From Escherichia coli (lineage in GTDB: Bacteria > Pseudomonadota > Gammaproteobacteria > Enterobacterales > Enterobacteriaceae), in NCBI RefSeq assembly GCF_036507355.1, contig NZ_AP027877.1: DNA of 64,000 nt; one strand, written 5' to 3'. Under the pieces are notes generated by a model. It worked only from the letters and a program-made list of their open reading frames with translations. It was not told where the DNA came from and did not search any database. The stretch's first letter is position 1. Each line of letters starts with the position of its first letter. Positions 4,715 to 45,065 of the stretch are shown here, piece by piece. The position numbers and the translations under genes are program-made.

Positions 4715-4912
4715 AATTGCCATCCCTAATTGTATATACAAAAATGTATCTACAATTATTCTGCAATTATAGCGTTGATGTTGGAAATAGCATCACGTTT
4801 CGAATAATCAACCATGAAATTGACAATGAGTAAGTTGGACTTGATTCATCCAATAGAATTTCTCGCCTGACATGGCACACTAAACACCTCGCTGTCGGGT
4901 AATGACTCCAAC

Positions 4913-5415
4913 TTACTGATAGTGTTTTATGTTCAGATAATGCCCGATGGCCTTGTCATGCAGCTCCACCGATTTTGAGAACGACAGTGACTTCCGTCCC
5001 AGCCTTGCCAGATGTTGTCTCAGATTCAGATTATGTCGCTCAATGCGCTGAGTGTAACGCTTGCTGATAACGTGCAGCTTTCCCTTCAGGCGTGATTCAT
5101 ACAGCGGCCAGCCATCCGTCATCTATACTACGACCTCAAAGGCCGACAGCAGGCTCAGAAGACGCTCCAGTGTGGCCAGAGTGCGTTCACCGAAGACGTG
5201 GCCACAACCGTCCTCCGTATCCTGTCATACGCGTAAAACAGCCAGCGCTGACGTGATTTAGCACCGACGTAGCCCCAATGTTCGTCCATTTCAGCGCAGA
5301 CAATCACATCACTGCCCGGTTGTATGCGCGAGGTTACCGACTGCGGCCTGAGTTTTTTAAGTGACGTAAAACCGTGTTGAGGCCAACGCCCATAATGCGT
5401 GCACTGGCGCGACAT
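4913..5415 (-). pseudogene. insB: IS1 insB broken into two ORF fragments (4913-5122 and 5155-5415)
   Basis: Copy 2 has a continuous 167-aa InsB ORF; here the same protein is split across two frames. Confidence 0.6.
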
Positions 5416-5609
5416 CCGACGCCATTCATGGCCATATCAATGATTTTCTGGTGCGTACCGGGCTGAGAGGCGGTGTAAGTGAACTGCAGTTGCCATGTTT
5501 TACGGCAATGAGAGCAGAGATAGCGCTGATGTCCGGCAGTGCTTTTGCCGTTACGCACCACGCCTTCAGTAGCGGAGCAGGAAGGACATCTGATGGAAAT
5601 GGAAGCCAC
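5334..5609 (-). CDS. insA: IS1 InsA
   Basis: 91-aa [46 protein letters not shown]... Confidence 0.85.
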
Positions 5610-5923
5610 GCAAGCACCTTAAAATCACCATCATACACTAAATCAGTAAGTTGGCAGCATTACCAAATTTTAATTACACTTAAGGTGTATATTTTCTATG
5701 CAAGCCATCAATTAAAGAGGTGTAATGTGCTGATGACTATTTGTAATCGTTATACATTCTGACCTGGAGTCAGAAGGTATTTCTCTGTCTGTGTATTCGC
5801 AGGCAGTGTGGTTGATTACATGAAATTCAGTACATTTGTCCTTCTCGCCTGCCTTTCGTCATTACCGACGGTATTGAATTTCGTTTTCCCCATTGGGGTT
5901 CTCCGGACAAGGAGTTGTTTGTT

Positions 5924-7156
5924 ATGCCACGTTTTTTTGCCCGCCATGCCGCCACGCTGTTTTTCCCGATGGCGTTGATTTTGTATGACTTTGCTGCGTA
6001 TCTGTCGACGGACCTGATCCAGCCAGGGATCATTAATGTGGTCCGTGATTTTAATGCCGATGTCAGTCTGGCCCCGGCTGCCGTCAGTCTCTATCTCGCT
6101 GGAGGCATGGCATTGCAGTGGCTGCTGGGGCCGCTTTCCGACAGGGTTGGCCGCAGGCCGGTGCTGATTACCGGGGCGCTAATATTTACCCTTGCCTGTG
6201 CTGCGACAATGTTCACAACGTCTATGACACAGTTTCTTATCGCGCGTGCAATTCAGGGCACCAGTATCTGTTTTATTGCCACCGTTGGTTATGTCACGGT
6301 GCAGGAGGCGTTCGGACAGACAAAAGGGATCAAGTTGATGGCGATTATCACCTCCATCGTACTGATTGCGCCGATTATTGGCCCGCTTTCCGGCGCAGCT
6401 CTGATGCACTTTGTGCACTGGAAAGTCCTTTTTGCCATCATTGCGGTTATGGGTTTTATCTCATTTGTTGGCTTACTGCTGGCGATGCCAGAGACGGTGA
6501 AGCGCGGCGCGGTTCCATTTAGCGCCAAAAGCGTCTTGCGCGATTTTCGTAATGTCTTTTGCAATCGGCTGTTCCTCTTTGGCGCAGCAACCATCTCTTT
6601 AAGCTATATCCCCATGATGAGTTGGGTGGCTGTCTCGCCGGTGATCCTGATCGACGCGGGCGGCTTAACAACTTCGCAGTTCGCCTGGACACAGGTTCCG
6701 GTGTTCGGCGCGGTGATTGTCGCGAATGCCATCGTGGCGCGTTTCGTTAAAGATCCGACCGAACCGCGCTTTATCTGGCGTGCCGTACCCCTTCAACTGG
6801 TTGGCCTCGCGCTGTTGATTATCGGCAATCTGCTGTCACCGCACGTCTGGCTGTGGTCGGTGCTGGGCACCAGTCTGTATGCTTTCGGGATTGGTTTGAT
6901 TTTCCCGACCTTATTCCGCTTTACGCTGTTTTCCAATAACTTACCGAAAGGGACCGTCTCCGCATCGCTGAATATGGTGATCCTGATGGTGATGTCTGTC
7001 TCGGTCGAAATCGGCCGCTGGCTGTGGTTTAACAGCGGTCGCTTGCAGTTTCATCTGTTAGCCGTTGTGGCAGGCGTTATCGTCGTTTTCACCCTGGCCG
7101 GATTGCTTAATCGCGTGCGCCAACATCAGGCTGCCGAGCTGGCGGAGGAGCGGTGA
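5924..7156 (+). CDS. mdtM: MFS multidrug efflux transporter
   Basis: From [35 protein letters not shown] matches my memory of MdtM; hydrophobic multi-TM profile. Confidence 0.9.
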
Positions 7157-7196
7157 TTTTTGCGCGATCCTGCCGTCAGGCTCTATTCTTAACATT

Positions 7197-8477
7197 ATGA
7201 ATAAACTCATTGAACTCAGACGCGCCAAAATGTTGGCGCTCTCTTTACTGCTTATCGCCGCTGCTACCTTTGTCGTTACGCTGTTTTTGCCGCCTAATTT
7301 TTGGGTGAGCGGCGTGAAGGCGATTGCTGAAGCGGCGATGGTCGGCGCGCTGGCGGACTGGTTTGCGGTGGTGGCGCTGTTTCGCCGCGTGCCGATTCCG
7401 ATCATTTCTCGTCATACGGCGATTATTCCGCGTAATAAAGACCGGATTGGCGAAAATCTCGGCCAGTTCGTGCAGGAAAAATTTCTCGATACCCAATCGC
7501 TGGTGGCATTGATTCGACGTCACGAACCGGCGTTGTTGATTGGCAACTGGTTTAGTCAGCCAGAAAACGCCCGCCGCGTTGGTCAGCATCTGTTGCAGAT
7601 CATGAGCGGTTTTCTTGAACTAACCGATGATGCGCGTATTCAGCGCCTGCTTAAGCGCGCGGTCCACCGGGCGATTGATAAAGTCGATCTTTCTGGCACC
7701 AGTGCGTTGATGCTGGAGAGTATGACTAAAAACGATCGTCATCAGGTGCTGCTGGATACGCTGATCGCACAGTTGATCGCCCTTCTCCAGCGCGATAAAT
7801 CGCGCAAGTTTATTGCCCAGCAAATTGTTCGCTGGCTGGAGAGCGAGCATCCACTGAAAGCCAAAATTTTGCCCACTGAATGGCTGGGCGAACATAGCGC
7901 GGAGTTGGTTTCTGACGCGGTGAATTCTTTGCTTGATGATATCAGCCGCGATCGTGCGCATCAGATCCGCCATGCGTTTGATCGCGCTACCTTCGCCCTG
8001 ATCGAGAAACTGAAAAACGATCCGGAAATGGCGGCGCGAGCCGATGCCGTAAAAAGCTATCTGAAAGAAGATGAAGCTTTTAACCGCTATCTCAGTGAAT
8101 TGTGGGGGGATTTACGGGAATGGCTGAAAGCGGATATCAACAGTGAAGATTCTCGTGTGAAAGAACGTATCGCGCGGGCTGGTCAATGGTTTGGCGAAAC
8201 GTTAATTGCCGATGATGCCTTGCGGGCGTCGTTAAATGGTCATCTGGAACAAGCCGCACACCGCATTGCGCCTGAGTTTTCCGCATTCCTGACTCGCCAT
8301 ATCAGCGACACGGTAAAAAGCTGGGACGCACGGGATATGTCGCGGCAAATCGAGTTAAATATCGGCAAAGATCTCCAGTTTATCCGTGTCAACGGTACGC
8401 TGGTTGGCGGTTGTATTGGACTTATTTTGTATTTGCTGTCGCAGCTCCCGGCCTTGTTCCCCCTCGGCAATTTATAG
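7197..8477 (+). CDS. yjiN: DUF445 inner-membrane protein
   Basis: From [27 protein letters not shown]; the ATG at 7197 was checked in the sequence. The track ORF carries a 44-codon N-terminal extension that overlaps mdtM. Confidence 0.8.
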
Positions 8478-8592
8478 AAATCCATGAAAAACTAAGTGGC
8501 TAACCGCGAGAGAGATCAAATAAACCACACTAAAAGAATGGTAATAATGTGGCCTCTTTTCATTATCTCCCGTGGTACGGGGAAGGAAAATC

Positions 8593-9254
8593 ATGTCACT
8601 TGTCACCGATCTACCCGCCATTTTCGATCAGTTCTCTGAAGCTCGCCAGAAAGGCTTTCTCACCGTCATGGATCTCAAGGAGCGCGGCATTCCGCTGGTT
8701 GGCACCTACTGCACCTTTATGCCGCAAGAGCTCCCGATGGCAGCCGGTGCGGTTGTGGTTTCGCTATGTTCCACCTCTGATGAAACCATTGAAGAAGCCG
8801 AGAAAGATCTGCCGCGCAACCTCTGCCCGCTGATTAAAAGCAGCTACGGCTTCGGCAAAACCGATAAATGCCCCTACTTCTACTTTTCTGATCTGGTGGT
8901 CGGTGAAACCACCTGCGACGGCAAAAAGAAAATGTATGAATACATGGCGGAGTTTAAGCCCGTTCATGTGATGCAACTGCCAAACAGCGTTAAGGACGAT
9001 GCCTCGCGTGCATTATGGAAAGCCGAGATGCTGCGCTTGCAAAAAACGGTAGAAGAACGTTTTGGGCACGAGATTAGCGAAGATGCTCTGCGCGATGCCA
9101 TTGCGCTGAAAAACCGCGAACGTCGCGCACTGGCCAACTTTTATCATTTGGGGCAGTTAAATCCTCCAGCGCTTAGCGGCAGCGACATTCTGAAAGTAGT
9201 CTACGGCGCAACCTTCCGGTTCGATAAAGAGGCGTTGATCAATGAACTGGATGC

Positions 9255-9258
<4 letters not shown>
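8593..9258 (+). CDS. yjiM: 2-hydroxyacyl-CoA dehydratase component (HgdB-like), N-terminal ORF of a split yjiM
   Basis: MSLVTDLPAIFDQFSEARQKGFLTVMDLKERGIPLVGTYCTFMPQE...; ends ...ELDA at a TGA that overlaps the next ATG. Confidence 0.7.
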
Positions 9259-10520
<1,262 letters not shown>

Positions 10521-10691: not shown

Positions 10692-11699
<1,008 letters not shown>

Positions 11700-20079: not shown

Positions 20080-21540
20080 TTACAGCGCAGCCACACACTC
20101 GCGCGCACCGCGTTCGCACAGCTGCTGATATGCCGCCGTCACCGCGCCAACAAAGTCGGCATTCTGCGGCAGATCATCGGCAAAAATACCGCTCAGGCCC
20201 AGCAGCGCTTTCACGCGGTCTGCGCCCTGATACTGCGCGTTAATCTTCTGGAACTCGGCCAGCATCGGGTCGACCACGTCAATGGCATTACCCTGCTCAT
20301 CCACGCCCTGGGTGTAACGCATCCAGCCAGCCACGCCCAGCGCCAGGTGACGCCAGCTGCCGCCGTTTTGCAGGTGCAGACGCACCGGATCCAGCAGACG
20401 CTGCGGTAACTTCTGGCTGCCGTCCATCGCAATCTGCCAGGTACGGTGACGCAGAGACGGGTTGCTGAAACGCTCGATCAGCAGCGTCGCATAGGCGTTC
20501 AGGTCCGTACCTTCCGGCATCGACAGCGTTGGCGCTTGTTCCTGCATCATCAGGGCAAAGGCCGCTTTGCGATAATCCGGGTTAGTCATGGTGTCGGCAA
20601 TAGTTTCATAGCCGCCGAGGTAACCGAGGTATGCCAGGAAAGAGTGGCTGCCGTTCAGCATACGCAGCTTCATCATTTCGAACGGCACAACGTCTGCAAC
20701 GAACTGTGCGCCCACTTTATCCCAGTCCGGACGACCATTAACGAAGTTATCTTCAATCACCCACTGACGGAACGGTTCGCAGGCAATGGCGCACGGGTCA
20801 TAAACACCCAGCTGGTCAGCAATTTCCTGTAAGGTTTCTGGCGTCGCCGCCGGAACGATGCGGTCAACCATGGTGCACGGGAAGGTGACGTTCTCTTCAA
20901 TCCATGCCGCCAGCTGCGGGTCACGCGCCTGAGCCAGCCCCAGTACCGCGACCTTCGCCACATGACCGTTTTCACGCACGTTATCGCAGGACATCACCGT
21001 AAACGCTTTCAGCCCTTTTTCACGACGCAGACGCAGGGCTTCGACGATGTAACCAATCGCAGACTTCGGCGCAGTCGGGTTTTCCAGATCGTGCTTGATC
21101 AGCGGGTTATTGAGATCCAACTGACCGCTTGCCGCATCAGCGCAGTAGCCTTTTTCCGTGACCGTCAGAGAGACAATCGCCGTCTGCGGACGCGCCATCG
21201 CGTTGAGAATACCTTCGCAGCCGTCGATTTCCGGATGCAGCGCTTCTTTCATCGAACCGATAATTTTCAGTTCGGTGCTTTCCGCGCCTTTTTCCGCCAC
21301 GGTGTACAGCAGTTGCTGTTTTTTCAGGTTTTCAATCAGCACACGGTCGTTACCTGGCATCAGGTTAACTTCGCAGATACCCCAGTCGCTGTCGGTGCTT
21401 TCCAGCAGATGATGGGTATACAGCGCCTGGTGCGCGCGGTGAAACGCCCCGCAACCGAGATGCACAATGCGTGATTCCAGACGAGAATGCTCCCATGACG
21501 GGCGGGCAACCGGCAGATTGCTGTCAACAATAGTAGTCAT
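20080..21540 (-). CDS. uxuB: D-mannonate oxidoreductase
   Basis: 486-aa ORF in the uxuA-uxuB-uxuR arrangement. Confidence 0.9.
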   Translation of the reverse strand: MTTIVDSNLPVARPSWEHSRLESRIVHLGCGAFHRAHQALYTHHLLESTDSDWGICEVNLMPGNDRVLIENLKKQQLLYTVAEKGAESTELKIIGSMKEALHPEIDGCEGILNAMARPQTAIVSLTVTEKGYCADAASGQLDLNNPLIKHDLENPTAPKSAIGYIVEALRLRREKGLKAFTVMSCDNVRENGHVAKVAVLGLAQARDPQLAAWIEENVTFPCTMVDRIVPAATPETLQEIADQLGVYDPCAIACEPFRQWVIEDNFVNGRPDWDKVGAQFVADVVPFEMMKLRMLNGSHSFLAYLGYLGGYETIADTMTNPDYRKAAFALMMQEQAPTLSMPEGTDLNAYATLLIERFSNPSLRHRTWQIAMDGSQKLPQRLLDPVRLHLQNGGSWRHLALGVAGWMRYTQGVDEQGNAIDVVDPMLAEFQKINAQYQGADRVKALLGLSGIFADDLPQNADFVGAVTAAYQQLCERGARECVAAL

Positions 21541-24661: not shown

Positions 24662-25564
24662 TTATTGATAAACAAAAGTCACGCCAATAATCGATTGCAC
24701 ATTCCCTGCAGTCACCTGCCCTCCGGTACGTGCGTAATTTGCCGTTAATCCCAGACTTACCGCCGAAGTTCCTACTGCTCCTAACGATACCGTGTTATTC
24801 GCTGGAATAATCGCACCGTTGCGCGTCAACTGTACGCCGACGCCCTGCGCTGGTGAAAACGACGCGGTATTGGTGAAAATCGAGTTGCCCGCATCTGCGG
24901 TTGTGCCGGAGAGGTAATACCCCAGGTTTTGGCTTTTCGCACAATAAACGGTAAGAGGAATTGGCACTGAACCAGGGTAGTCCGGCAGAGTAACGGTGAC
25001 ATCACGAGCAGAAACATCACAGCCGCCAGTGGGCACCACCACATCATTATTGGCGTAAATATTCCACACAAACTGGAAATCATCGCTGTTATAGTTGTTG
25101 GTCTGTCGCAAAATAAGCACGGCAATTAATGAGCCAGCTTTAATCGCCACCCCGCCCGCACTGCTCACAGGCGTCAAATAAAGCGCCACCGGCCACGGCT
25201 TATCCGTTCTCGAATTATAAACAACCCGCGGCGTTTCGCTGGTGGTCGGAAATGGATAGCTACTGCCACTATATTTTACGGTCCCGGAAAAATTAGATAA
25301 CACGCCGCCATAAGCCGAGCCTCGTTGCAGTGTGACATAGTCTGTAATGGTTTCCGGATAATCGTTATGGCAAAAGATTTGCGTCGAAAGATCTACGACC
25401 AGGTTTTGCCCCACATTCACGGCAGGCGCAAGGTTTACATAAACATTAGCGCTGCCACCACCAATAGGGATAGCGGTACCATTGGCGGTTTTACAGGCGA
25501 ATGACCAGGCATTTACCGACCAGCCCATCAGCAGTACAGCAAACAGGGTAATAACTCGTTTCAT
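24662..25564 (-). CDS. fimH: Type 1 fimbrial adhesin
   Basis: 300-aa ORF MKRVITLFAVLLMGWSVNAWSFACKTANGTAIPIGGGSANVYVNLAP... Confidence 0.9.
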   Translation of the reverse strand: MKRVITLFAVLLMGWSVNAWSFACKTANGTAIPIGGGSANVYVNLAPAVNVGQNLVVDLSTQIFCHNDYPETITDYVTLQRGSAYGGVLSNFSGTVKYSGSSYPFPTTSETPRVVYNSRTDKPWPVALYLTPVSSAGGVAIKAGSLIAVLILRQTNNYNSDDFQFVWNIYANNDVVVPTGGCDVSARDVTVTLPDYPGSVPIPLTVYCAKSQNLGYYLSGTTADAGNSIFTNTASFSPAQGVGVQLTRNGAIIPANNTVSLGAVGTSAVSLGLTANYARTGGQVTAGNVQSIIGVTFVYQ

Positions 25565-25583
25565 TACAATTATCTCTTCGGGT

Positions 25584-26087
25584 TCAGCTGTAGGTATAGG
25601 TGATGCTAATCACTGCCTGAATGGTTCCCTGAGTGGCTCCGCCATTTACCGTCAATGCTCTGACCTGTAACGGGAAGTGCGCTGATTGTGAGGAATCATC
25701 CACCTGAACTGTTTTGGTTGCGCCAGTATTCAATGTGTTGCCACTGTCATCCTGTAGCTCTAACTGGATGTTTTGCGCGGTCCCCTGGTTTTTATAATAT
25801 CCGGTATTGTCGGCTGCCCCGCTGAAGCTGGCAGTGACCCTCGACGTTCCCACCGGACAATTAGTCAACTCAAGCGCAACATCATGCCAGGCCGATGCCG
25901 CCCCGGCAGACATCAGACTGAAAGAATAAAGATCGCCGAGATCAACCGTGGCATTGGTGGTGGAAACTGTGCACGGTTTGGCGACGACCTTACCGTTCAC
26001 CGTGATGGTGACATCGGCTGCCTGTATCGTCGCACTTGCGAGCGCCAATATTGCCGCCAATAAATACCCACGTTTGCGCCATTTCAT
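25584..26087 (-). CDS. fimG: Type 1 fimbrial minor subunit
   Basis: Pilin-like ORF with signal peptide; start taken at MKWRKRGYLL. Confidence 0.85.
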   Translation of the reverse strand: MKWRKRGYLLAAILALASATIQAADVTITVNGKVVAKPCTVSTTNATVDLGDLYSFSLMSAGAASAWHDVALELTNCPVGTSRVTASFSGAADNTGYYKNQGTAQNIQLELQDDSGNTLNTGATKTVQVDDSSQSAHFPLQVRALTVNGGATQGTIQAVISITYTYS

Positions 26088-26099
26088 GAGCATCTCCAG

Positions 26100-26630
26100 T
26101 TACTGATATTCAAGAGTGAAGGTAGCCGTGGCATTGATATGCCCCGCAGTGACAGGCACCTGTGTCGCCATTAGCCGGGCGTAAAAATTCAACGTATTTG
26201 GTTTACCCGGCGTCAGGGTCGTCCACGAAATCGCGGACGATGGAGCATTAAGGGGTATCTGATTTTGCTGCTCATTCAGAAGCTGTATTCCCAATCCCGA
26301 AGCCGCTGACACCGTATTTTCAAGTGCAAGCAGGTTGGCATTGTGGCTATCTGCAACACCGGTAAACCCAACCTTTACGGCAGAAAGGGCGTTACCACAG
26401 GGTGACAGCAAAATACGAAATGGAACGACAGGAGTCGTTGCGCCAATGTTGTTAAATTGCTTCGCCGCGTTTTCCATCAGATCAACAGTAAAATTGGTTG
26501 ATTCAGCGGCCACACTACAGCCGTTATCTCTGACATAGCCGCGGATAGTAATCGTGCTATCCGCAGCCAAAACGCGACTTACCGCCAGCCACAAAAAAGC
26601 GCACAGAAGATAAAAAGGTTTGTTTCTCAT
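26100..26630 (-). CDS. fimF: Type 1 fimbrial minor subunit
   Basis: From [17 protein letters not shown]...; pilin-like. Confidence 0.85.
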
Positions 26631-26639
26631 CACGCCCCC

Positions 26640-29276
26640 TTAACGACATTCAGCTGATAGCTGGGTTAATAACTGCTGCTGACTCTCTGGTGGCAGTTGA
26701 TAATTGGCGATACAGTGAGCATTTTCCTCTTCTCCCCATTTCACCTGAACTTTTCCCGCTAGAGGCATTCCGCTGAGGTAAACCTGACCATTATCCGCAA
26801 CAATGCCGCTACTCTGGCTACTCTCTGATGTCACCATCGCCCCAAACGGCAGCGGCTTATTATTGTGGGTTAGCGTCATGAGCAGTTTTATCCCAACGCG
26901 CGCTTTAAACTCTGCTCGCACGATCGCCCCACGAGTGGGAACAACGTTAGCGACCGCGTTATCTAAATCGACGTTATCAGCCAGGGTATTGGTATCCAGC
27001 GCCACTCTGTTTTCCCGATATTCGGTGGCATAAGGCAGCACGGCATAACCGCGCCAGTCGGTACGCACCCCCGTCTGGTTTTCGACTTTTGCATCTTTTG
27101 CGCCAGGCGCTTTAACAAGTACCACCGTATCGTTTAACGGCTGCCCCAGCGTTACACCATTGGCATGAGCCAGTACCCCACCGCTGACTCCGTAATAGAG
27201 CTGCTTAATATCATCGCTATGGCTGTAACCGATATTGGCATTGCCGTAACCACCGCGATAATTCAGCGTGGCGTAGCCTGTACTTCCGCTATTACCATCA
27301 CCTCCCCCGGCATAGCCGGTTTGCACGCAATAGCTGAGGTTGTTGTCTTCCAGCAACGTACCGTATACACCAGCCAGATTGGTCATCCGACCGTTGAGAT
27401 CGTGTGACATGCTGTAGCTGGCACTGGCATGTCGCCACTGAGATTTACTGTCAGAACGCAGCCAGTGGCTGAAAGGAATATTGACGTTAAGCGCTAACAT
27501 CTGATCACGTCCTTTTTGCCAGGCGTTTTTCGTCAGGCTATAGCTGAGCGTCCAGTTGATATCTTCGAACGCAGTATTTAAACCAGCCTGGAATTGCTCA
27601 TCGACATTACTCGTTCCCCAATAAGTTTGATGGCTACCACTCAAATACAGTGTTGATGAGCGCCCGAGTTGCTGAGTAACGGTGAGTTGTAATTTCCCGC
27701 GTTTGTTATAAGCGAGGTTGTAATAGTCGGTGAATTTCGGCTTAACCTGAATAACTCCATCCTGTGTTTCGATGTTGTAGCCATTCATTCGACTGTATGT
27801 TGTATCAGCGAAATTAAAATATCCGCTGGTCGAATAACGGTAACCCACTAACTGAATATTCGTGCCTGACTCATTGAGCGATTTGTTATAGAGAAAACGC
27901 ACCGATTGTCCGTCATGCTGACTGTCATCGGGAAGTGTGGAATTAGCCTGAGTCATATCCACAGACAGAGCGCCCAGTGCCCCCATATTTTTCCCGATAC
28001 CAAAATTAAAAGCACGATAACGATCTGCCAGTTGCGTTCCACCATATATTGTCCAGCCAGCCGGAAGGCCGTGGAGTAATGTACTTTGGAAAAAGCGGGG
28101 TTTTTCCTGTTGCGCATTTCCACTACGGTATTCTCCTGCCATAATGGAATAACGAGTATGCCCTTCACGTTGCAAAAGCGGGACTGACGAATAGGGTACG
28201 GTAAAAATCTGCGTGCTGCCGTCAGCCTCTTTAATCGTTACCTGCAAGTCACCACTATTACCTGCGGCATAGATATCGTTGATGGTAAAAGGCCCCGGCG
28301 GCACCGTACTATTATAAATGTCATACCCATTTTGTTTAATAGTGACCTGTGCAGTACCACGAGCAATACCGTGGATCACCGGGGCAAATCCTCTTTGGCT
28401 ATCGGGTAACATATTGTCATCTGAGGCCAATTGTGCGCCGCGAAAGTTAATACCATCGAAAATATCGCCCTGAGTATAACCATCACCCAGCGTCAGCCGG
28501 GAACGTAACGGTATTATGTCTCGCTCAAGCCAGGTATTGATATGCTGCCATTTATTTTTGCTATTTGATGAACTGTCGCTACTGTTATAACTCCAGCTGG
28601 TATTGTCGCGTAAACGCCACGCACCAATATTTAACCCACTCTGTAGGTTTAAATATGCATAATGGCTGTTACCCCCAATCCGATTCTGTACACTATTTCC
28701 GCTGAAATTATAATTGAGCAATCCGGCATTAATACCGGGATCCCATAACTCAGGAGGAATATAACCACGCGCGCGATTACTCATAAATGCCTGAGGGATC
28801 GTCAGGTTGAGTCGCTGCTGACCAACATCTAAATGCGCAGTAGCGTCCTGGACCATTGTGGTTAATGGCACGCAGGCATCATCCGCCAGCAGATTCATAC
28901 CGGAGACAGAAGCCGTATTCAGCCCCATACTGGCAAGTTGCGCGCGTGTCAGGCAGGGAACAATCCCTTGTTCGCTGTCGCCCGTATTAAATGTGACATC
29001 ACGCGTTGCCATATAACCATTATTCAAATAGATATCGACGCGATACGTCCCTGGCGGTAATTCTTGCCCATTTTCAAAACGCGATAAATCGGCCACAGCC
29101 TGGGGATCATCCGCTAAAAAACGCGGGTTAAAATAGAGTTCGGCAGATGACAAAGGTGCCTGTGCGGCAAAAGCACAGGCGACAACGAGCCGGACAAAAA
29201 AACCAGCCAAACGATGCTTACGAATATGCAAGCATTGTGTGTTTCGCTGGTAAAGTCTTAAATTCAGATATGACAT
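26640..29276 (-). CDS. fimD: Fimbrial usher
   Basis: 878-aa outer-membrane usher ORF. Confidence 0.9.
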   Translation of the reverse strand: MSYLNLRLYQRNTQCLHIRKHRLAGFFVRLVVACAFAAQAPLSSAELYFNPRFLADDPQAVADLSRFENGQELPPGTYRVDIYLNNGYMATRDVTFNTGDSEQGIVPCLTRAQLASMGLNTASVSGMNLLADDACVPLTTMVQDATAHLDVGQQRLNLTIPQAFMSNRARGYIPPELWDPGINAGLLNYNFSGNSVQNRIGGNSHYAYLNLQSGLNIGAWRLRDNTSWSYNSSDSSSNSKNKWQHINTWLERDIIPLRSRLTLGDGYTQGDIFDGINFRGAQLASDDNMLPDSQRGFAPVIHGIARGTAQVTIKQNGYDIYNSTVPPGPFTINDIYAAGNSGDLQVTIKEADGSTQIFTVPYSSVPLLQREGHTRYSIMAGEYRSGNAQQEKPRFFQSTLLHGLPAGWTIYGGTQLADRYRAFNFGIGKNMGALGALSVDMTQANSTLPDDSQHDGQSVRFLYNKSLNESGTNIQLVGYRYSTSGYFNFADTTYSRMNGYNIETQDGVIQVKPKFTDYYNLAYNKRGKLQLTVTQQLGRSSTLYLSGSHQTYWGTSNVDEQFQAGLNTAFEDINWTLSYSLTKNAWQKGRDQMLALNVNIPFSHWLRSDSKSQWRHASASYSMSHDLNGRMTNLAGVYGTLLEDNNLSYCVQTGYAGGGDGNSGSTGYATLNYRGGYGNANIGYSHSDDIKQLYYGVSGGVLAHANGVTLGQPLNDTVVLVKAPGAKDAKVENQTGVRTDWRGYAVLPYATEYRENRVALDTNTLADNVDLDNAVANVVPTRGAIVRAEFKARVGIKLLMTLTHNNKPLPFGAMVTSESSQSSGIVADNGQVYLSGMPLAGKVQVKWGEEENAHCIANYQLPPESQQQLLTQLSAECR

Positions 29277-29342
29277 TATTCCTCCGGTTTAAAATCACCC
29301 GGCAGTCAATTCTTTTTATTCAGGCGAAAAATTCCCCCTGCG

Positions 29343-30068
29343 TTATTCCATTACGCCCGTCATTTTTGGGGTAAGTGCACCATAATCATTTATTGTTCGG
29401 TAAGTAATATTGCTTCCTGCATCAGAAGGCAATTTAACCGTGCTTTCGCCCATTGGAGGCACCAAGGCATTTTCAAGAACCCGTGCTCCGGCATTCAACT
29501 CTGTTACCGTCAGGTAATAGGGTGTCGGGTTAATCAGCGTCAGAGAATTCGCGCTACGACGAAATCTTAATTTTTCTGCGGCCTGATCGGGTGGCAACGC
29601 TAATTTAGCCGGACGATAGTACAGTTTAATGCGGCTGATAATTGCGAGCTGTAGCGTATTCTCAGTCAATTTTGATTTATCCATTGACGGAATCGCTTTA
29701 ACGTTCATCCAGAATAAACTTTCCCGGTCCTGTGGCAAGTGGTTATTTGTTGCATCAAGAATACGTAAGGTATTCTCTTTTTTTCCCTTCATCGCAAACA
29801 GAGGAGGCGTCACGATAAAACGACCATCCTTTACACCATCGGCATTTTCCACCCATGATTGAATTAAATAGGTACTATTTTCATCATTATTTGTCACGGC
29901 AAGTTGCACTTGTTTTTGCCCTGCCGGATAAATTACGCGAGTCGCACCTAAGGCCACTCCCGCTTCAGCGCGTCCGGCAACCATCATTGCCATGAACATC
30001 AGGATACCTGCCAGCAAGCAGAATGTTATTTCCTGCGATTTCCTTACATTGACGTTTTTATTACTCAC
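29343..30068 (-). CDS. fimC: Fimbrial periplasmic chaperone
   Basis: 241-aa PapD-like chaperone ORF. Confidence 0.9.
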   Translation of the reverse strand: MSNKNVNVRKSQEITFCLLAGILMFMAMMVAGRAEAGVALGATRVIYPAGQKQVQLAVTNNDENSTYLIQSWVENADGVKDGRFIVTPPLFAMKGKKENTLRILDATNNHLPQDRESLFWMNVKAIPSMDKSKLTENTLQLAIISRIKLYYRPAKLALPPDQAAEKLRFRRSANSLTLINPTPYYLTVTELNAGARVLENALVPPMGESTVKLPSDAGSNITYRTINDYGALTPKMTGVME

Positions 30069-30104
30069 TGTCCTGTTCCTGTTATCACATTATCTGCTGA
30101 ACAA

Positions 30105-30644
30105 TTACTGATAGGTTAAAGAGAACCAGGCCTGGGCATTGGCGATGCCGCCAGTAACCCGATGCCCGGTAGCACGATATTTGGCGATGAAATGTAGCGA
30201 AGTAGAGCCTGAGTAAAGCCGTTTCCAGTTTGCTGGAGGACGATTAATCGGTACGAGGTTTCCTTCATCATCAAACAACGCTACGCCAATATTGGTGGCT
30301 ATCCCTGGCCCCTCTCCCACGGAAAGCACATCCGGATTTTTACCATCCGCGACACCGTGAAACGCCACACCTACACGTTCGCTCACCACCGTGCTACATT
30401 CCCGTAAATGAATAACAAAAGGCACCGGTGCGCTATCTTCCCCTACCGCATGAAACCGGTTACTGCTGATTTGCCCCATATTGACCGTCATTTGTTTATC
30501 ACCGGCTTCAATCCGGCAAGTTTCCGCAATAATGACGCCCTGAAATTGCATATTTCCGCCGGGCAACGTGGTATTCCATTTATTTCCGGCCAGAGCAAAC
30601 ATTGGCAGCAACGACGCTAATAGAAATAATCTCTTCCTTTTCAT
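30105..30644 (-). CDS. fimI: Fimbrin-like protein
   Basis: Start taken at [16 protein letters not shown]; the track extension overlaps fimA. Confidence 0.8.
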
Positions 30645-30708
30645 CGTTATTTTTATCGCACAAGGGTGGGCATCCCTGCCCGTAATAACGTCCCTGAACC
30701 TGGGTAGG

Positions 30709-31263
30709 TTATTGATACTGAACCTTGAAGGTCGCATCCGCATTAGCTGCGCCAGGGGTTGCGACACCGGTTGCATAATAACGCGCCTGGAACGGAATGG
30801 TGTTAGTACCGTTATTCAGGGTTGTTTGCTCACTGAATGTCGCACCATCCAGCGTCAGCGCAGCACCCGTTCTGTCCAGGATCTGCACACCAACGTTTGT
30901 TGCACTACCTGCAGCAGAACTCTGCAGAGCCAGTACTTTAGGATGAGCACTGTCAATCGCAGTCCCCAAGAAGGCAACAGCGGCTTTTGTGGCAACACTG
31001 GTATCGCAATCATTCAGCTGAATGTTAAAACCGACAGCAGAGCTGGTTGCTCCAGTCTGCTTCAGACTAGCGGTACGAACCTGGCCCAACTGAACGGTTT
31101 CATCAACAGAGCCTGCATCAACTGCGCAAGCGGCGTTAACAACTTCCCCTTTAAAGTGAACGGTCCCACCATTTACCGTCGTGGGTGTAGTTTCAGCCAG
31201 AGCCGCTGTAGAACTCAGGGACAGAGCCGACAGAACAACAATTGCCAGAGTTTTAATTTTCAT
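30709..31263 (-). CDS. fimA: Type 1 fimbrial major subunit
   Basis: [23 protein letters not shown]...ATFKVQYQ. Confidence 0.9.
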
Positions 31264-31382
31264 ACTGCTTTCCTTTCAAAAAACTATTTCTAAATCGACA
31301 TGGGCAGTCGTTCCGTACACTTTGTTTTGTCAACGAGTTTGACTGCCAACACTGCACAGTTTCCCCCCAAAAGATGAAACAT

Positions 31383-31696
31383 TTGGGGCCATTTTGACTC
31401 ATAGAGGAAAGCATCGCGCACAAACTTTTTCAGTTTATTTGTTGGCTTGATATTCTATTGTTATCTTTATTTATAGATTTTTATATTGCATGAGGTGGTT
31501 TTTGGAGAGAAGAATGAGGAAGTTGCTTCGAGACACAGAAACGTTAGCTTTACATTTAGCGGAGGTGATGTGAAATTAATTTACAAGAGAAATGATTTAC
31601 ATATCAAACAGTTAGATGCTTTTTGTCGTTTTATAATATTTTTATGCTTGAGAAAAAATACGTAACTTATTTATGATATGGACAGTTTTGGCCCCA
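31383..31696. promoter_or_regulatory. fimS: fimS invertible promoter element, 314 bp, bounded by 9-bp inverted repeats TTGGGGCCA / TGGCCCCAA
   Basis: Inverted repeats read at 31383-31391 and 31688-31696; sits between fimE and fimA; contains a TTGAGA-N18-TATGAT promoter-like element on the + strand (31648-31677). Confidence 0.8.
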
Positions 31697-31744
31697 ATTG
31701 TCTTGTATTTATTTGTTTTTTACCTTTACTATCAATAAGTTAAA

Positions 31745-32341
31745 TTAAACCTCTTCTCTTTTTAATTTTTCGTTTATGAGATTATTTCTTTCCCATAATC
31801 CGGCAAAACGAGCAGCATTACTGGTGGTATAACGCACAGTATGGCGAATATTTCGATGCCCGAGATAATCCTGAATTAAACGGGTATCTGCACCACGCTC
31901 CGCCAGTTCATAACCGCAAGCATGCCTTAACATATGAGGATGAGTCTGCGTTACGGTTCCAGCTTCAATACCGGCATCACGAATAATGCGATAGGCCTGC
32001 TGGCGAGAAAGCCGACTCCCGCGGCGAGAAATAAATATGGCGTCGGTCCGGTCAGCGCCTTTCCAGTTAGCACGTTCCAGGGTCCAGCGTTCCACAGCTT
32101 CACGCTCATCAAAACGTAACGGGTGAACGGTAGAAAATCCGTTCTTCAGTCGGCGAATATTTATTCGACCTTCATTAAGGTCAAGATCCTGATAATGCAG
32201 ATCAAGCAGTTCACTAATACGCATCCCATGCCGATATGCCAACAGAATAAGACAATAATCTCTGGCTCCCGTTGCCCCGTAACAAACCGCCTGCATCATG
32301 GCCTGAACTTCTTTACCGGTAAGATAACGACGTTTACTCAC
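31745..32341 (-). CDS. fimE: Fim-switch tyrosine recombinase (ON-to-OFF)
   Basis: 198-aa ORF with a ...HMLRHACGYELAERG...LGHRNIRHTVRYT tyrosine-recombinase C-terminus. Confidence 0.9.
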   Translation of the reverse strand: MSKRRYLTGKEVQAMMQAVCYGATGARDYCLILLAYRHGMRISELLDLHYQDLDLNEGRINIRRLKNGFSTVHPLRFDEREAVERWTLERANWKGADRTDAIFISRRGSRLSRQQAYRIIRDAGIEAGTVTQTHPHMLRHACGYELAERGADTRLIQDYLGHRNIRHTVRYTTSNAARFAGLWERNNLINEKLKREEV

Positions 32342-32818
32342 AATAGTAGTACTCCTAACTGAGATATATTTGAATGAATACCTATAGGAAACCTCAATCG
32401 GTCAAAATTAGCCCAATAGATAAAAAGATAACCACACACGAAGTGATGTGGCTATCAGTCAATTACATTAAATATCATACAAAAATAAAATATCACTGAT
32501 GTGATAACATCTATTTTCATTGATTTGATTCAATATAACAATAGATTGCAGTGGATTAACTTCCAGTTGCTTAAAAAATAAAGGAAAAAGTGCAGAAACA
32601 GGAGAGTTTAAGTGATGTGTAAATTTATGAATGATTTTGTTTATTTATTTTGAAGAACATAAACCATTGTATTTTGTATGGATATGGTTAACTTAATGTT
32701 TATTATGATAATTAAGAATCATACTTACAATAACATCAATTAATAAATGGTTAATCATTTTTGATATATCGTAAGAATAATGTAGTTTTTAACACCATCC
32801 CTGGTATCTCAACTATCT

Positions 32819-33421
32819 CTATAAAACAGCGTGACGCTGTCGTCCTCTGGCTCTATCCCAGATGCCGTAAAAACGCCCTGCATTGCTGGCGGTATACCAG
32901 ACAGTATGACGAATATTGCGATGCCCAAGATAATCCTGGATAAGTCGCGTATCTATTCCCATATTCGCCAAAGCAAAACTACACGAATGGCGTAACATGT
33001 GCGGATGAATCTCCAGTGACAACCCGGCATTACCACCGGAAGTCGAGATAATATGGTAAAACTGTTGCCGAGAAAGCGGATTCCCCTTACGCGATAAAAA
33101 TACCCACTCGCTCTCAGCATGCGGGTACGAAGTACGGATACTCAACCAGTTTTTTAAAGCCTGAACTTCTTTATTCAATAGCGGGTGCGTTGTTGAAAAG
33201 ACTTTTTTTAATCGATGGATATATATACACTTTGCCTTAAGATCAATATCCGAAATCCTCAATCGACAAATTTCACTCGCCCGGAAACCATGAATAAAAC
33301 AAAGCAAAGTCAGACAATAATTACGTGCTGCATGAGGCCCGGTATTTGCTGCTTTAAGGAGTGATTCGATTTCACTATGGGTCAGGAAGTTCCTTTTTTT
33401 GTTATCAGCCTTATTCTTCAT
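32819..33421 (-). CDS. fimB: Fim-switch tyrosine recombinase
   Basis: From MKNKADNKKRNFLTHSEIESLLKAAN; paralogue of fimE. Confidence 0.9.
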   Translation of the reverse strand: MKNKADNKKRNFLTHSEIESLLKAANTGPHAARNYCLTLLCFIHGFRASEICRLRISDIDLKAKCIYIHRLKKVFSTTHPLLNKEVQALKNWLSIRTSYPHAESEWVFLSRKGNPLSRQQFYHIISTSGGNAGLSLEIHPHMLRHSCSFALANMGIDTRLIQDYLGHRNIRHTVWYTASNAGRFYGIWDRARGRQRHAVL

Positions 33422-34436
33422 CGTTTTTCCCTTATAATTACAGACGCGCACTAGCTGTGCTGGGTTAGCAATAATCCAACATTTTTATCCTGATTATGTT
33501 TATAAAAGCGAACGTTTGCTTAATAACTAACGTAAGTGGACCAGTTCTTCTGAGTGAACTTAAATGGAGTAGCAACAGTTAATTATAATAACGTTGCCAT
33601 ACAAACGCCATGCTCTTGCATGCTATGTACCTTTATATATTTATCAATCGGATACGAATCTAATAATAACCCTCATCATTAATGCAACTAATCTTATCTA
33701 TATATCATGTGATATGTTCTGTAACAAGTAAAATCAACATAAAAAATTCAGCAAAATTTAATATTCGTTCAACTAGCCGTCTCACATATGACATTATTAG
33801 TCAACTCCATTTGCCACAAAATGGCTATTTCATGGAGCGCAGTAATTTCTTAGTGGCTATTATCATGCTAATTCTTAGGTCCCTAGCGATTATTCCTGGC
33901 TGATTCGTCAGCTTACGCCATGAGATTGTTACATTCATTTTTATCCTGGAGATATGGGGGAACGCAGGAGATGATTTTTTCATCTACATTCGTTGGTAAA
34001 TATAGCTTTGGTCACTACGACTTAAACCTTCCTCAATCACAGCCATTCGCCGGGCGATACGGCAAACAAACTAAGTGAAACATCATCCTGAAAACACCAA
34101 CATCAACAAGCCTCTCCAGATCGACTTCAGAAGTGACCAGTTACAAGCCACAAACCAAGAAACATATTTCATGATGAGAATTATGCTCAGCCTGATGGCG
34201 GGTAAACACTGATTTTCACCAAGCTCACGGAGTTAGCTTGCAAAGCTTTCCTTGTTTAGACTATAAATAAATTATTTATAAAACAAATAGTTAAACGAAG
34301 ATCTTTAGTTTTTGAAGACCACCGCAAGTGTTCGTCTGGCTTCACATGGCATCTTCCTCTTAGAAAAATATCGACATATTTTGTGACACGAATTGCAAAT
34401 CTGGTTTTGTTGTATGGATTGCGTGATTTTTGTTCT

Positions 34437-37763: not shown

Positions 37764-37770
37764 GCGTTCA

Positions 37771-38025
37771 TTAATTTGATTTATTCGCATCCATCAGCGC
37801 TTTTAACTGCTCCGGCGTAAACGGTGGTTTGCGTCGGTGCAACATCGCATGGCAATTAGGGTACACAGGCAGCAAATCATTAACTGGATCCAGCTGGTAA
37901 TCCTCTTTAATGGCTGACAGCGGCACCAGGTGATGCACATGGATAAAGCCTTCAGCGATATCACCATAGATCTTCACCAGATCAACACCGCATATTCCGT
38001 ATGAACCATACGGAGATTTAACCAT
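37771..38025 (-). CDS. Short HNH-nuclease-motif protein (84 aa), possibly a truncated gene
   Basis: HVHHLVPLS...NCHAMLH motif; its start overlaps the divergent next gene on a CATG. Confidence 0.45.
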   Translation of the reverse strand: MVKSPYGSYGICGVDLVKIYGDIAEGFIHVHHLVPLSAIKEDYQLDPVNDLLPVYPNCHAMLHRRKPPFTPEQLKALMDANKSN

Positions 38026-40030: not shown

Positions 40031-40411
40031 ATGCAGAAAAATGTGACTCCCGGCAGGCGAAAAGGCTGCCCTAATTATCCTCCCGAATTTAAACAGCTGC
40101 TCGTTGCTGCCTCCTGTGAACCCGGGATATCCATCTCAAAACTTGCTCTTGAAAATGGCATTAACGCCAATCTGTTGTTCAAATGGCGACAACAATGGCG
40201 CGAGGGAAAGCTGCTATTACCTTCTTCAGAGAGCCCCCAGCTACTTCCTGTGACTCTCGATGCAGCTGCCGAACAGCCAGAATCGCTCGCAGAGGACCCG
40301 GAAACCCTCAGTATCAGCTGTGAGGTAACGTTCCGGCACGGGACGCTCCGCTTCAATGGCAATGTCAGCGAAAAGCTCCTGACTCTGCTGATACAGGAAC
40401 TGAAGCGATGA
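40031..40411 (+). CDS. IS66 accessory protein (orfA)
   Basis: MQKNVTPGRRKGCPNYPPEFKQLLVAASCEPGISISKLALENGINANLLFKWRQQW (helix-turn-helix-like). Confidence 0.7.
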   Translation: MQKNVTPGRRKGCPNYPPEFKQLLVAASCEPGISISKLALENGINANLLFKWRQQWREGKLLLPSSESPQLLPVTLDAAAEQPESLAEDPETLSISCEVTFRHGTLRFNGNVSEKLLTLLIQELKR

Positions 40412-40755
40412 TCCCGTTACCTTCCGGGACCAAAATTTGGCTGGTTGCCGGTATCACCGATATGAGAAATGGCTTCAACGGCCTGGCTGCGAAAGTACAA
40501 ACGGCGCTGAAAGACGATCCCATGTCCGGCCATGTTTTCATTTTCCGGGGCCGCAGCGGCAGTCAGGTTAAACTGCTGTGGTCCACCGGTGACGGACTGT
40601 GCCTCCTGACCAAACGGCTGGAGCGTGGGCGCTTCGCCTGGCCGTCAGCCCGTGATGGCAAAGTGTTCCTTACGCAGGCGCAGCTGGCGATGCTGCTGGA
40701 AGGTATCGACTGGCGACAGCCCAAGCGGCTGCTGACCTCCCTGACCATGCTGTAA
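40408..40755 (+). CDS. IS66 TnpB-like protein (orfB)
   Basis: MIPLPSGTKIWLVAGITDMRNGFNGLAAKVQ...; ATGA overlap with orfA. Confidence 0.75.
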   Translation: MIPLPSGTKIWLVAGITDMRNGFNGLAAKVQTALKDDPMSGHVFIFRGRSGSQVKLLWSTGDGLCLLTKRLERGRFAWPSARDGKVFLTQAQLAMLLEGIDWRQPKRLLTSLTML

Positions 40756-40804
40756 ATCTCTTTATCCTGGTTGTCACAGAATAAGCCCGGTAAAATACGG
40801 GCTT

Positions 40805-42190
40805 ATGAACGACATCTCTTCTGACGACATCTTCCTGCTAAAACAGCGCCTGGCCGAACAGGAAGCGCTGATCCACGCCCTGCAGGAAAAGCTGAGCAAC
40901 CGGGAGCGCGAAATAGACCATCTGCAGGCGCAGCTGGATAAACTCCGCCGGATGAACTTCGGCAGTCGTTCCGAAAAAGTCTCCCGCCGTATCGCACAAA
41001 TGGAAGCCGATCTGAACCGGCTTCAGAAAGAGAGCGATACGCTGACTGGTAGGGTGTATGACCCGGCAGTACAGCGTCCGTTGCGTCAGACCCGCACCCG
41101 TAAGCCGTTCCCTGAATCACTACCCCGTGACGAAAAGCGACTGTTGCCTGCGGCGCCGTGCTGCCCGAACTGCGGCGGTTCACTGAGCTATCTGGGCGAG
41201 GATACCGCCGAACAGCTGGAGTTGATGCGTAGCGCCTTCCGGGTTATCCGGACGGTACGGGAAAAACATGCCTGTACTCAGTGCGATGCCATCGTGCAGG
41301 CACCTGCACCTTCGCGGCCCATCGAGCGGGGTATCGCCGGACCGGGGCTGCTGGCCCGCGTGCTGACCTCGAAGTATGCAGAGCACACCCCGCTGTATTG
41401 CCAGTCAGAAATATACGGCCGGCAAGGTGTGGAGCTGAGCCGTTCACTGCTGTCGGGCTGGGTGGATGCATGCTGCCGGCTGCTGTCTCCGCTGGAAGAG
41501 GCGCTTCATGGCTATGTCATGACTGACGGCAAACTCCATGCCGATGATACCCCGGTCCAGGTACTGCTGCCGGGTAATAAGAAGACGAAGACCGGGCGGT
41601 TGTGGGCGTATGTTCGTGATGACCGCAATGCCGGGTCAGCGTTGGCACCTGCAGTGTGGTTCGCTTACAGCCCGGACAGAAAAGGCATCCATCCGCAGAC
41701 TCATCTTGCTTGCTTCAGCGGTGTGCTGCAAGCGGATGCGTACGCCGGGTTCAACGAGCTGTATCGCAATGGTGGGATAACGGAAGCTGCCTGCTGGGCT
41801 CATGCCCGCCGAAAGATCCACGATGTGCACGTCCGCATCCCGTCAGCACTGACGGAAGAAGCCCTAGAGCAGATCGGTCAGTTGTACGCCATAGAGGCGG
41901 ATATAAGGGGAATGCCGGCAGAGCAGCGGCTTGCTGAACGTCAGCGAAAAACGAAACCGCTGTTGAAATCCCTGGAAAGCTGGTTGCGTGAAAAGATGAA
42001 GACCCTGTTCTTCGGCTCTGGCCATGGTGGTGAGCGGGGAGCGCTACTGTACAGCCTGATCGGGACGTGCAAACTGAATGACGTGGATCCAGAAAGCTAC
42101 CTTCGCCATGTGCCTGGCGTCATAGCAGACTGGCCGGTCAACCGGGTCAGCGAACTGCTTCCGTGGCGCATAGCACTGCCAGCTGAATAA
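40805..42190 (+). CDS. IS66-family transposase (orfC)
   Basis: 461-aa ORF with an N-terminal coiled coil and a CxxC...CxxC zinc-ribbon region. Confidence 0.75.
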   Translation: MNDISSDDIFLLKQRLAEQEALIHALQEKLSNREREIDHLQAQLDKLRRMNFGSRSEKVSRRIAQMEADLNRLQKESDTLTGRVYDPAVQRPLRQTRTRKPFPESLPRDEKRLLPAAPCCPNCGGSLSYLGEDTAEQLELMRSAFRVIRTVREKHACTQCDAIVQAPAPSRPIERGIAGPGLLARVLTSKYAEHTPLYCQSEIYGRQGVELSRSLLSGWVDACCRLLSPLEEALHGYVMTDGKLHADDTPVQVLLPGNKKTKTGRLWAYVRDDRNAGSALAPAVWFAYSPDRKGIHPQTHLACFSGVLQADAYAGFNELYRNGGITEAACWAHARRKIHDVHVRIPSALTEEALEQIGQLYAIEADIRGMPAEQRLAERQRKTKPLLKSLESWLREKMKTLFFGSGHGGERGALLYSLIGTCKLNDVDPESYLRHVPGVIADWPVNRVSELLPWRIALPAE

Positions 42191-42428
42191 CACATCCCCG
42201 TCAATACGGCCCTCGCTGTACGCTTACTTTTGTTCGGACTGCTTATGGCCTTTTTCCACTGGTGTAGCAGGAAAGTTAACCGGCTGCCACCATGAGATGA
42301 CGTGTAAACCGTGCAGGCATGTTTTCACGTGGTGACGCTTTCATTGGGGGTCTACGCCGGAACCCCAATATTGTTCACATACATGAATTTGAAAAACTAA
42401 GCGATACTGCTGTCCGTACCTTATAAAC

Positions 42429-43787: not shown

Positions 43788-44071
43788 ATTGTTAGCATCC
43801 ATAAAGTGAAGATCACACTACACCATAAAGAAGAAACGAGTCAGGAAAATGACATCGAATGGCAACATGCGCGGGCCTGAGGCCAAAGAAATGTAAAACA
43901 CTGTTGTTATTTGTAACAACGGAAACATTTACGGAAATTATTTGTCTTTCTTCGTGATCAAAAATGCTGTGTCTTGTTGGATTGGAGTGATGAGGGCTGC
44001 GTTTAGGAAACGCCCTATATTGTACGGTTGCATTATCGCGGTAGGGGTAATGCACGTGTCAGTATGATGAG

Positions 44072-44200
44072 CTGACCACACTCACGTGGGTGGACTGGTA
44101 TAACAATCGACGATTGCTGGAAAGGCAGGGCCATATCCCACCGGCAGAAGCAGAAAAAGCTTATTATGCTTCCATCGGAAACGATGATCTGGCAGCCTGA
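44072..44200 (+). pseudogene. C-terminal remnant of a DDE (rve-type, IS3-like) transposase
   Basis: Translates to ...WVDWYNNRRLLERQGHIPPAEAEKAYYAS...*, a typical transposase C-terminus; no upstream body. Confidence 0.4.
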
Positions 44201-44298
44201 GTTCACAGATAAAACACTCTCCAGGAAACCCGGGGCGGTTCACTTAGCCGCGTGTCCATTATTGCTGGATAAGATCATAACGAGGTAATGACTCCAAC

Positions 44299-44802
44299 TT
44301 ATTGATAGTGTTTTATGTTCAGATAATGCCCGATGACTTTGTCATGCAGCTCCACCGATTTTGAGAACGACAGCGACTTCCGTCCCAGCCGTGCCAGGTG
44401 CTGCCTCAGATTCAGGTTATGCCGCTCAATTCGCTGCGTATATCGCTTGCTGATTACGTGCAGCTTTCCCTTCAGGCGGGATTCATACAGCGGCCAGCCA
44501 TCCGTCATCCATATCACCACGTCAAAGGGTGACAGCAGGCTCATAAGACGCCCCAGCGTCGCCATCGTGCGTTCACCGAATACGTGCGCAACAACCGTCT
44601 TCCGGAGCCTGTCATACGCGTAAAACAGCCAGCGCTGGCGCGATTTAGCCCCGACATAGCCCCACTGTTCGTCCATTTCCGCGCAGACGATGACGTCACT
44701 GCCCGGCTGTATGCGCGAGGTTACCGACTGCGGCCTGAGTTTTTTAAGTGACGTAAAATCGTGTTGAGGCCAACGCCCATAATGCGGGCTGTTGCCCGGC
44801 AT
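44299..44802 (-). CDS. insB: IS1 InsB (transposase frame)
   Basis: 167-aa ORF ...[42 protein letters not shown]... Confidence 0.85.
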
Positions 44803-44996
44803 CCAACGCCATTCATGGCCATATCAATGATTTTCTGGTGCGTACCGGGTTGAGAAGCGGTGTAAGTGAACTGCAGTTGCCATGTTTTACGACAGTGAGA
44901 GCAGAGATAGCGCTGATGTCCGGCGGTGCTTTTGCCGTTACGCACCACCCCGTCAGTAGCTGAACAGGAGGGACAGCTGATAGAAACAGAAGCCAC
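44721..44996 (-). CDS. insA: IS1 InsA
   Basis: 91-aa [46 protein letters not shown]... Confidence 0.9.
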
Positions 44997-45065
44997 TGGA
45001 GCACCTCAAAAACACCATCATACACTAAATCAGTAAGTTGGCAGCATCACCGGCCTCGCATTTAA

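Follow-up and report, generated by a model that had tools for sequence, protein, structure and literature searches.

Two IS1 copies around the fim region

The DNA analysed here, referred to as the window, is a stretch of 64,000 nucleotides from Escherichia coli (contig NZ_AP027877.1 of assembly GCF_036507355.1). It carries two copies of the insertion sequence (IS) IS1, named IS1-left and IS1-right, that bracket a segment including the uxu, fim and nan genes. The elements, their reading frames and the segment between them are the following.

4138-4714, minus strand: brnA-brnT toxin-antitoxin pair, which together with IS1-left lies at the position of the K-12 restriction island
4898-5664, minus strand: IS1-left, a defective IS1F-type element of 767 bp at the brnT/mdtM boundary, starting GGTAATGACTCC... 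and ending ...GCAGCATTACC
4913-5415, minus strand: insB pseudogene of IS1-left, disrupted by an internal TAG (5123-5125) and by the loss of 1 bp near 5200/5201
5334-5609, minus strand: insA of IS1-left, an intact frame of 91 residues in the list of open reading frames
5665-44283, no strand assigned: bracketed interval of 38,619 bp, made of about 32 kb of core genome collinear with K-12 (mdtM through nanS) and about 6.4 kb of leuX-island cargo
44284-45051, minus strand: IS1-right, an IS1A/consensus-type element of 768 bp, ending ...GCAGCATCACC
44299-44802, minus strand: insB of IS1-right, open, 167 residues
44721-44996, minus strand: insA of IS1-right, open

Sequence alignment delimited the elements at 4898-5664 (767 bp) and 44284-45051 (768 bp), with a start-to-start spacing of 39,386-39,387 bp. 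The measured interior of 38,619 bp agrees with the "about 38.6 kb" of an earlier sequence-only reading of the window, which had also taken both copies to lie in the same orientation. Exact alignment and a repeat search concur on this second point. The insA gene is on the minus strand in IS1-left and IS1-right alike, and the repeat search of the window returned exactly two long repeat families, both direct (4898-5197/44284-44583 and 5201-5500/44588-44887), and no inverted repeat pair. Both copies have the length of about 768 bp and the terminal inverted repeats expected of the IS1 family. The termini (GGTAATGACTCCAACTTA.../GGTGATGCTGCCAACTTA..., imperfect inverted repeats of about 23 bp) are present in each, with one substitution per end in IS1-left. 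The slippery motif A6C, TTAAAAAAC (on the plus strand GTTTTTTAA), is also found in both copies, with insA followed by insB' in the -1 frame. Neither copy is flanked by the 8-9-bp direct duplication expected of a simple insertion; family membership is untouched by this, but it shows that both lie at rearranged junctions.

The two copies are far from identical. They share 695 of 768 positions (90.5%), and their 73 differences consist of 72 mismatches and one 1-bp gap. These differences are spread evenly along the element, with 2-10 per 64-nt bin, and leave perfect-match runs of 51, 44, 35, 35, 35, 33, 30, 30, 29 and 27 nt. A conversion tract between the two copies was looked for along the whole element and none was found; likewise, the private differences (one in IS1-left, several in IS1-right) give no sign of exchange between them. 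The contrast in terminal sequence that had been pointed out from the sequence alone was confirmed (...GCAGCATTACC at 5664 versus ...GCAGCATCACC at 45051), as was the contrast in coding capacity: insA is open in both copies, whereas insB is broken in IS1-left by the 1-bp deletion and the TAG stop and forms an open 167-residue frame in IS1-right.

In E. coli it is routine to find direct IS copies on either side of chromosomal DNA, and that such copies can cause deletions is textbook knowledge. Because IS1 is abundant (about 11 matching places in the median E. coli genome) and both copies sit in known hypervariable loci, a second copy at a distance of 39 kb, with a 50% chance of sharing the orientation of the first, is not statistically remarkable. 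The arrangement is an ordinary one of a known kind.

The left copy is an IS1F-type relic

IS1-left differs at about 73 positions from consensus IS1A/E and at 71-75 positions from IS1A/B-type copies, while it is nearly identical to the IS1F copies located next to fec in related strains (6-10 differences, with 10 for the copy of strain 1283; 98.7-99.2% identity). Only one difference separates it from the relic found at the same site in strains MS15047, 720632 and EJN001, and the insB gene of this same-site copy in relatives is annotated as "frameshifted; internal stop". A count of 73 mismatches to the consensus has been reported for the IS1F of K-12, an element that was found to be essentially non-transposing (PMC12428005). 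IS1-left resembles this K-12 element (type IV, next to fecI) in its 73-difference distance from the consensus, and it has the end ...GCAGCATTACC in common with the fec-adjacent IS1F of relatives. Unlike K-12 IS1F, it is located at the brnT/mdtM boundary and not at fec, and it carries an extra 1-bp deletion in insB, with a length of 767 bp; a fec-adjacent IS1F is missing from the window. The sequences on either side of IS1-left (TCGCTGTCG and AAATTTTAA) do not contain the 8-9 bp target-site duplication.

All genome counts given here refer to 5426 complete RefSeq E. coli genomes, a set that does not include the window's own genome. The brnT flank together with the relic is present in 1114 of these, about a fifth. 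With two junction-specific queries the relic was found joined to mdtM in 1111 of the 1114, through two right-flank variants. The first, as in the window, is a K-12-like mdtM upstream region (449 genomes). The second, as in strain 1283, is a dienelactone-hydrolase gene fragment (662 genomes). It is worth noting that the same relic with the same left flank is thus followed by two unrelated right flanks (window 5665-5944 versus 10945-11207 of locus L008), neither of them with a target duplication. A gap between 1114 and 1005 genomes was at one point considered as representing rearranged derivatives; this was rejected, the gap being mostly made up of the second right-flank variant (449 + 662 = 1111).

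Homology with K-12 ends at the end of yjiA (4104) and restarts precisely where the IS1 ends (5664/5665), between rpnD and mdtM. The brnA-brnT pair and the relic (window 4105-5664) stand in place of a 19-kb K-12 block, mrr-hsdRMS-symE-mcrBC-yjiV-yjiTSR-rpnD. The segment between yjiA and mdtM is the locus defined as the restriction (immigration control) island (PMC4498929). The K-12 version of this island and the yjiPRS framework genes, about 19 kb from mrr to rpnD, are absent from the window. Fixed in a large lineage of E. coli, IS1-left is an IS1F-type relic, old and transposase-dead, located at the edge of the restriction island, for which the name immigration control region (ICR) is also in use.

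The relic is not completely inert. In strain 720632 (locus L006, NZ_CP025842.1) it is found twice, at 860-1626 and 7897-8663, the two copies being inverted and placed around an inverted mdtM-to-yjiJ' segment. They are identical to each other and 1 nt from IS1-left, and the new junctions carry GCAATCCAC and, as its reverse complement, GTGGATTGC, a 9-bp target duplication in inverted form. The arrangement bears the signature of a replicative intramolecular transposition, i.e. a duplicative inversion. Since the relic cannot make a transposase of its own, it must have been mobilised in trans in this strain. A different type of event is suggested in EJN001 (locus L011, NZ_CP086338.1), where the relic (9153-9919) and the fec-adjacent IS1F (40575-41341), about 31 kb apart, are identical, 1-bp deletion included. 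In MS15047, 1283 and 720632 these two elements differ at 5-6 positions. Gene conversion between the relic and the fec-adjacent IS1F may have taken place in EJN001.

The right copy lies at a probable deletion junction

IS1-right differs at 4 positions from an IS1A copy of strain 1283 and at 71-75 positions from IS1F-type copies. It is like the K-12 IS1A/IS1E consensus in its 768 bp, its open insA and insB and its standard ends. In contrast to these K-12 elements, it lacks the 8-9-bp target-site duplication (flanks TCATAACGA and GGCCTCGCA; at its right-hand edge the IS1 is directly followed by GGCCTCGCATTT), and IS1-right with both its flanks was found in 0 of the 5426 genomes. With its intact frames and its unshared junction, it is read as a consensus-type IS1 that was active recently.

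The two sides of this junction lead to different parts of island DNA in other strains. On the left side, no difference separates the window from strain 1283 as far as position 33237 of locus L002, and identity resumes after an 18-bp indel and reaches L002:33260. Past this point strain 1283 continues with an IS5 fragment, a ymgB-like gene, an IS1F and fecIRABCDE. On the right, homology with strains 102651 and DJH_183sputum begins exactly at 45052 (L003:6001). Before that point these two strains carry a membrane-protein gene, a helix-turn-helix gene and more island DNA, which in DJH_183sputum includes the fec operon. This last strain (locus L004, NZ_CP123593.1) also has a separate IS1 at 9041-9808, 34 bp from the window junction, flanked by an 8-bp duplication, GAAATGTC. 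Its insertion point corresponds to about 45086-45093 of the window, an AT-rich spot that has been struck by IS1 at least 2 times. Because a simple IS1 insertion only 34 bp away carries a target duplication, the missing duplication at IS1-right is meaningful. IS1-right sits at a breakpoint without target-site duplication.

In the simplest reading, IS1-right would mark a strain-specific deletion within the leuX island that removed the fec region, and for which we infer a size of roughly 17 kb or more. Judged from the relatives, the removed DNA would comprise the ymgB-like gene, the fec-adjacent IS1F and the fecIRABCDE operon. The scar could stem from an adjacent deletion by IS1, or two former IS1A-type copies could have crossed over. 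IS1 reportedly generates both adjacent deletions and duplicative inversions, as is said to have been described by Reif and Saedler in 1975 and by Turlan and Chandler in 1995. IS1-right presents the hallmark of an adjacent deletion, one IS at a breakpoint without duplication, and the doubled relic of 720632 would be the sister outcome. Unlike in the known adjacent deletions, the mechanism in the window is read from the scar, and a crossover of two IS1A-type copies would leave the same scar. Just to the left of IS1-right, at 44243-44260, the window has an 18-bp insertion relative to strain 1283, CTTAGCCGCGTGTCCATT; a 38-bp stretch similar to it recurs at 34411-34448 of L002.

Relation between the two copies

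Tn9 and the argF-carrying Tn2901 of K-12 are IS1 composite transposons with direct repeats. The window pair is alike in having direct IS1 copies around a DNA segment and valid outer termini, and the question arises whether the two copies and their 38.6-kb passenger have moved, or could move, as such a unit. The outer ends at 4898 and 45051 form a correct IS1 terminus pair, the InsA and InsB frames of IS1-right are intact, and the ends of the relic were recognised in trans in strain 720632. However, the outer flanks TCGCTGTCG and GGCCTCGCA differ, and no target-site duplication was found across either the outer or the inner flanks of the pair. Compared with K-12, the DNA in between is core genome that has kept its native order and position, and the unit was found in no other genomic context. 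Moreover, the left copy is present in 1114 genomes while the right junction is unique to the window (0/5426), and from these different frequencies it follows that the two ends arrived at different times. Unlike Tn9 and Tn2901, the window pair has no flanking target duplication, its passenger is native core DNA in place, and its copies differ in subtype and age, one of them being transposase-dead. As a history of the locus, a composite transposon is refuted by the mismatched outer flanks, the native core interior and the different age of the ends, and we consider a Tn9-like unit, moved or movable, very improbable.

Derivation of both copies from one element, either by replicative intramolecular transposition or by segmental duplication, would account for their shared orientation and family. 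It is contradicted by the 73 differences, by the assignment to different subtypes, each with near-identical relatives in other places, and by the different population frequencies of the copies. A single duplication is ruled out by the subtype assignment, and a common origin of this kind is next to impossible. The earlier proposal that the copies are independent insertions and not one recent duplication is borne out by their different subtypes (IS1F-type versus IS1A/consensus-type).

IS1-left and IS1-right are thus very probably unrelated, one being an old relic and the other a recent copy that marks a deletion. Each is located in one of two hypervariable loci, the restriction island and the leuX island, around the mdtM-uxu-fim-nan core, and they would be neighbours only by virtue of these separate loci flanking the core.

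Several observations weigh against this interpretation. The ten identical runs of 27-51 nt shared by the copies are compatible with a RecA-dependent crossover. The ends of the relic are still usable, as shown by the duplicative inversion in 720632, and in principle, with a small probability, the transposase of IS1-right could work on IS1-left or on the outer ends of the pair. What the right junction looked like in the ancestor was pieced together from two relatives and not taken from one genome. The best matches in the collection reach 99.8-99.9% for the left side and 98.3% for the right, so that "strain-specific" and 0/5426 are statements limited by sampling. Finally, about 3 of the 1114 relic-bearing genomes fall outside both right-flank variants.

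Recombination between the copies

RecA-dependent recombination requires a perfectly identical stretch of roughly 25 nt or more. It declines steeply as sequences diverge, and mismatch repair counteracts it. The sequence-only reading had stated that homologous recombination between IS1-left and IS1-right would delete fim. This is formally true for direct repeats. A crossover is topologically possible and would excise the 38.6 kb (5665-44283) together with one IS1 as a circle. A stronger version would regard the pair as a poised substrate, at which recombination deletes or circularises mdtM-uxu-fim-nan at a relevant rate and gives rise to fim-negative subpopulations. Besides the direct orientation and the identical runs mentioned above, it is clear from natural deletions that strains can do without fim, nan and the island cargo, and some Shigella lineages are without fim together with uxuABR-gntP (PMC4374849). 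The identity of the EJN001 relic with the fec-adjacent IS1F of that strain also suggests that bracketing IS1 copies can exchange sequence.

The genome survey does not support such a deletion. A synthetic query of 1967 bp was built for the predicted left-by-right junction, consisting of 600 bp of the brnT flank, a hybrid IS1 and 600 bp of the right flank, and it was matched in 0 of 5426 genomes. In the relatives, a more similar pair is formed by the relic and the fec-adjacent IS1F, in the same orientation, about 31-45 kb apart and with 0-6 differences; the crossover junction expected from it, brnT-IS1F-fecI, was also found in 0 of 5426. No product of the predicted deletion was seen in populations or related genomes, and the relic is still joined to mdtM in 1111 of the 1114 genomes that carry it. 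There is no conversion tract between the window copies, and a divergence of 9.5% is expected to cut RecA recombination by orders of magnitude. Because of this divergence, a RecA crossover between IS1-left and IS1-right should be rare. Taken together, the window pair is a poor recombination substrate, and it is quite unlikely that it acts as a poised one. The outcome is a specific negative: the pair is mismatched in subtype as well as in age and forms no transposon, and neither its deletion nor that of a 99%-identical pair is seen in 5426 genomes.

Loss of fim in related strains

Three relic-bearing relatives were opened, and each has an IS1-junction deletion in fim in which the relic is not involved. 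In EJN001 an IS1A at 20684-21450 replaces the equivalent of window positions 24833-33684, i.e. most of fimH through fimB. This junction recurs, with an identity of about 100%, in 307 of the 5426 genomes, many of them clinical isolates. No description of this 307-genome deletion was found in the searchable literature, and nothing relevant came from a search for papers that connect a named sequence type with the loss of fim through IS1. In 720632 the fec-adjacent IS1F abuts fimH at the window equivalent of 25029, with fim, nan and the cargo removed; up to 9 genomes, E. coli C included, have a similar fec-IS1F/fimH junction. In MS15047 an IS1B joins a ymgB-like gene to fimC at 30043.

Comparable lesions are known elsewhere. 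S. sonnei Ss046 and S. dysenteriae Sd197 have lost the entire fim cluster, alone or along with uxuABR-gntP (PMC4374849), and strain MC4100 carries the allele delta(fimB-fimE)632(::IS1). The IS1-associated fim lesions of Shigella and MC4100 are the same kind of event as those in the relatives of the window. In the window itself fim is intact, with the two IS1 copies lying 19 kb and 11 kb outside the cluster. In this lineage, fim is lost via rearrangements at other single IS1 copies and not via the bracketing pair. The general intuition that IS1 threatens fim was sound, but the left-right route that had been proposed is not the one observed. For studies of fimbriation in this lineage, this means that fim loss is common and results from single IS1 copies landing in or next to fim, not from the bracketing copies.

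One could go further and propose that the relic, through its trans-used ends and its exchange with the fec IS1F, and the IS1 copies of the leuX island together make the fim region a recurrent, lineage-specific hot zone of IS1-driven fim loss. If this were true, the window would show the precursor of such losses, still intact but at risk. We hold this to be unlikely.

Genomic setting of the window

The genes around and between the two copies, as deduced from collinearity with annotated relatives, are listed below in window order.

Left of IS1-left, in order: btsT, yjiX, yjiA, brnA-brnT
Bracketed interval, first part: mdtM, yjiN-yjiJ, kptA, yjiHG, iadA, hypT, iraD, yjiC
Bracketed interval, second part: uxuRBA, gntP, fimHGFDCIAEB, nanCMS
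24662-33451, minus strand: fim cluster from fimH to fimB, nine open frames of 300, 169, 177, 878, 241, 223, 184, 198 and 210 residues
Island cargo left of IS1-right: Gp2-family gene, zinc-ribbon genes, IS66-family element, phytase-like esterase, IS3 fragment
45066-46485, minus strand: right flank of IS1-right, with a gene of 281 residues and a serine recombinase gene, both preceded by other island DNA in other strains
48889-48973, minus strand: leuX, tRNA-Leu(CAA), at which the island with IS1-right is attached
Beyond the serine recombinase gene: gene of 304 residues, leuX, ahr, yjgR, lptGF, pepA, holC, valS and onward

The 281-residue gene adjoins the serine recombinase (resolvase) gene, at a distance of 3 kb from leuX. 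The N-terminal 160 residues of its product match PDC-S60, a candidate defence family of PADLOC (E = 1.7e-26), and there is a weak match to DUF4062 as well. Within the interval, yjiM (8593-9744) has a 1-bp deletion at about 9255 relative to MS15047, which splits it into two frames (8572-9258 and 9255-9743); the split gene is either a pseudogene or the result of a sequencing error. At 37877-37992 the window has 116 bp where strain 1283 holds a block of 4.1 kb that encodes a phosphorothioate-sensing restriction endonuclease, McrC and a truncated McrB-family protein and also contains an IS1A. The nanS gene is full length in the window and truncated in strain 1283.

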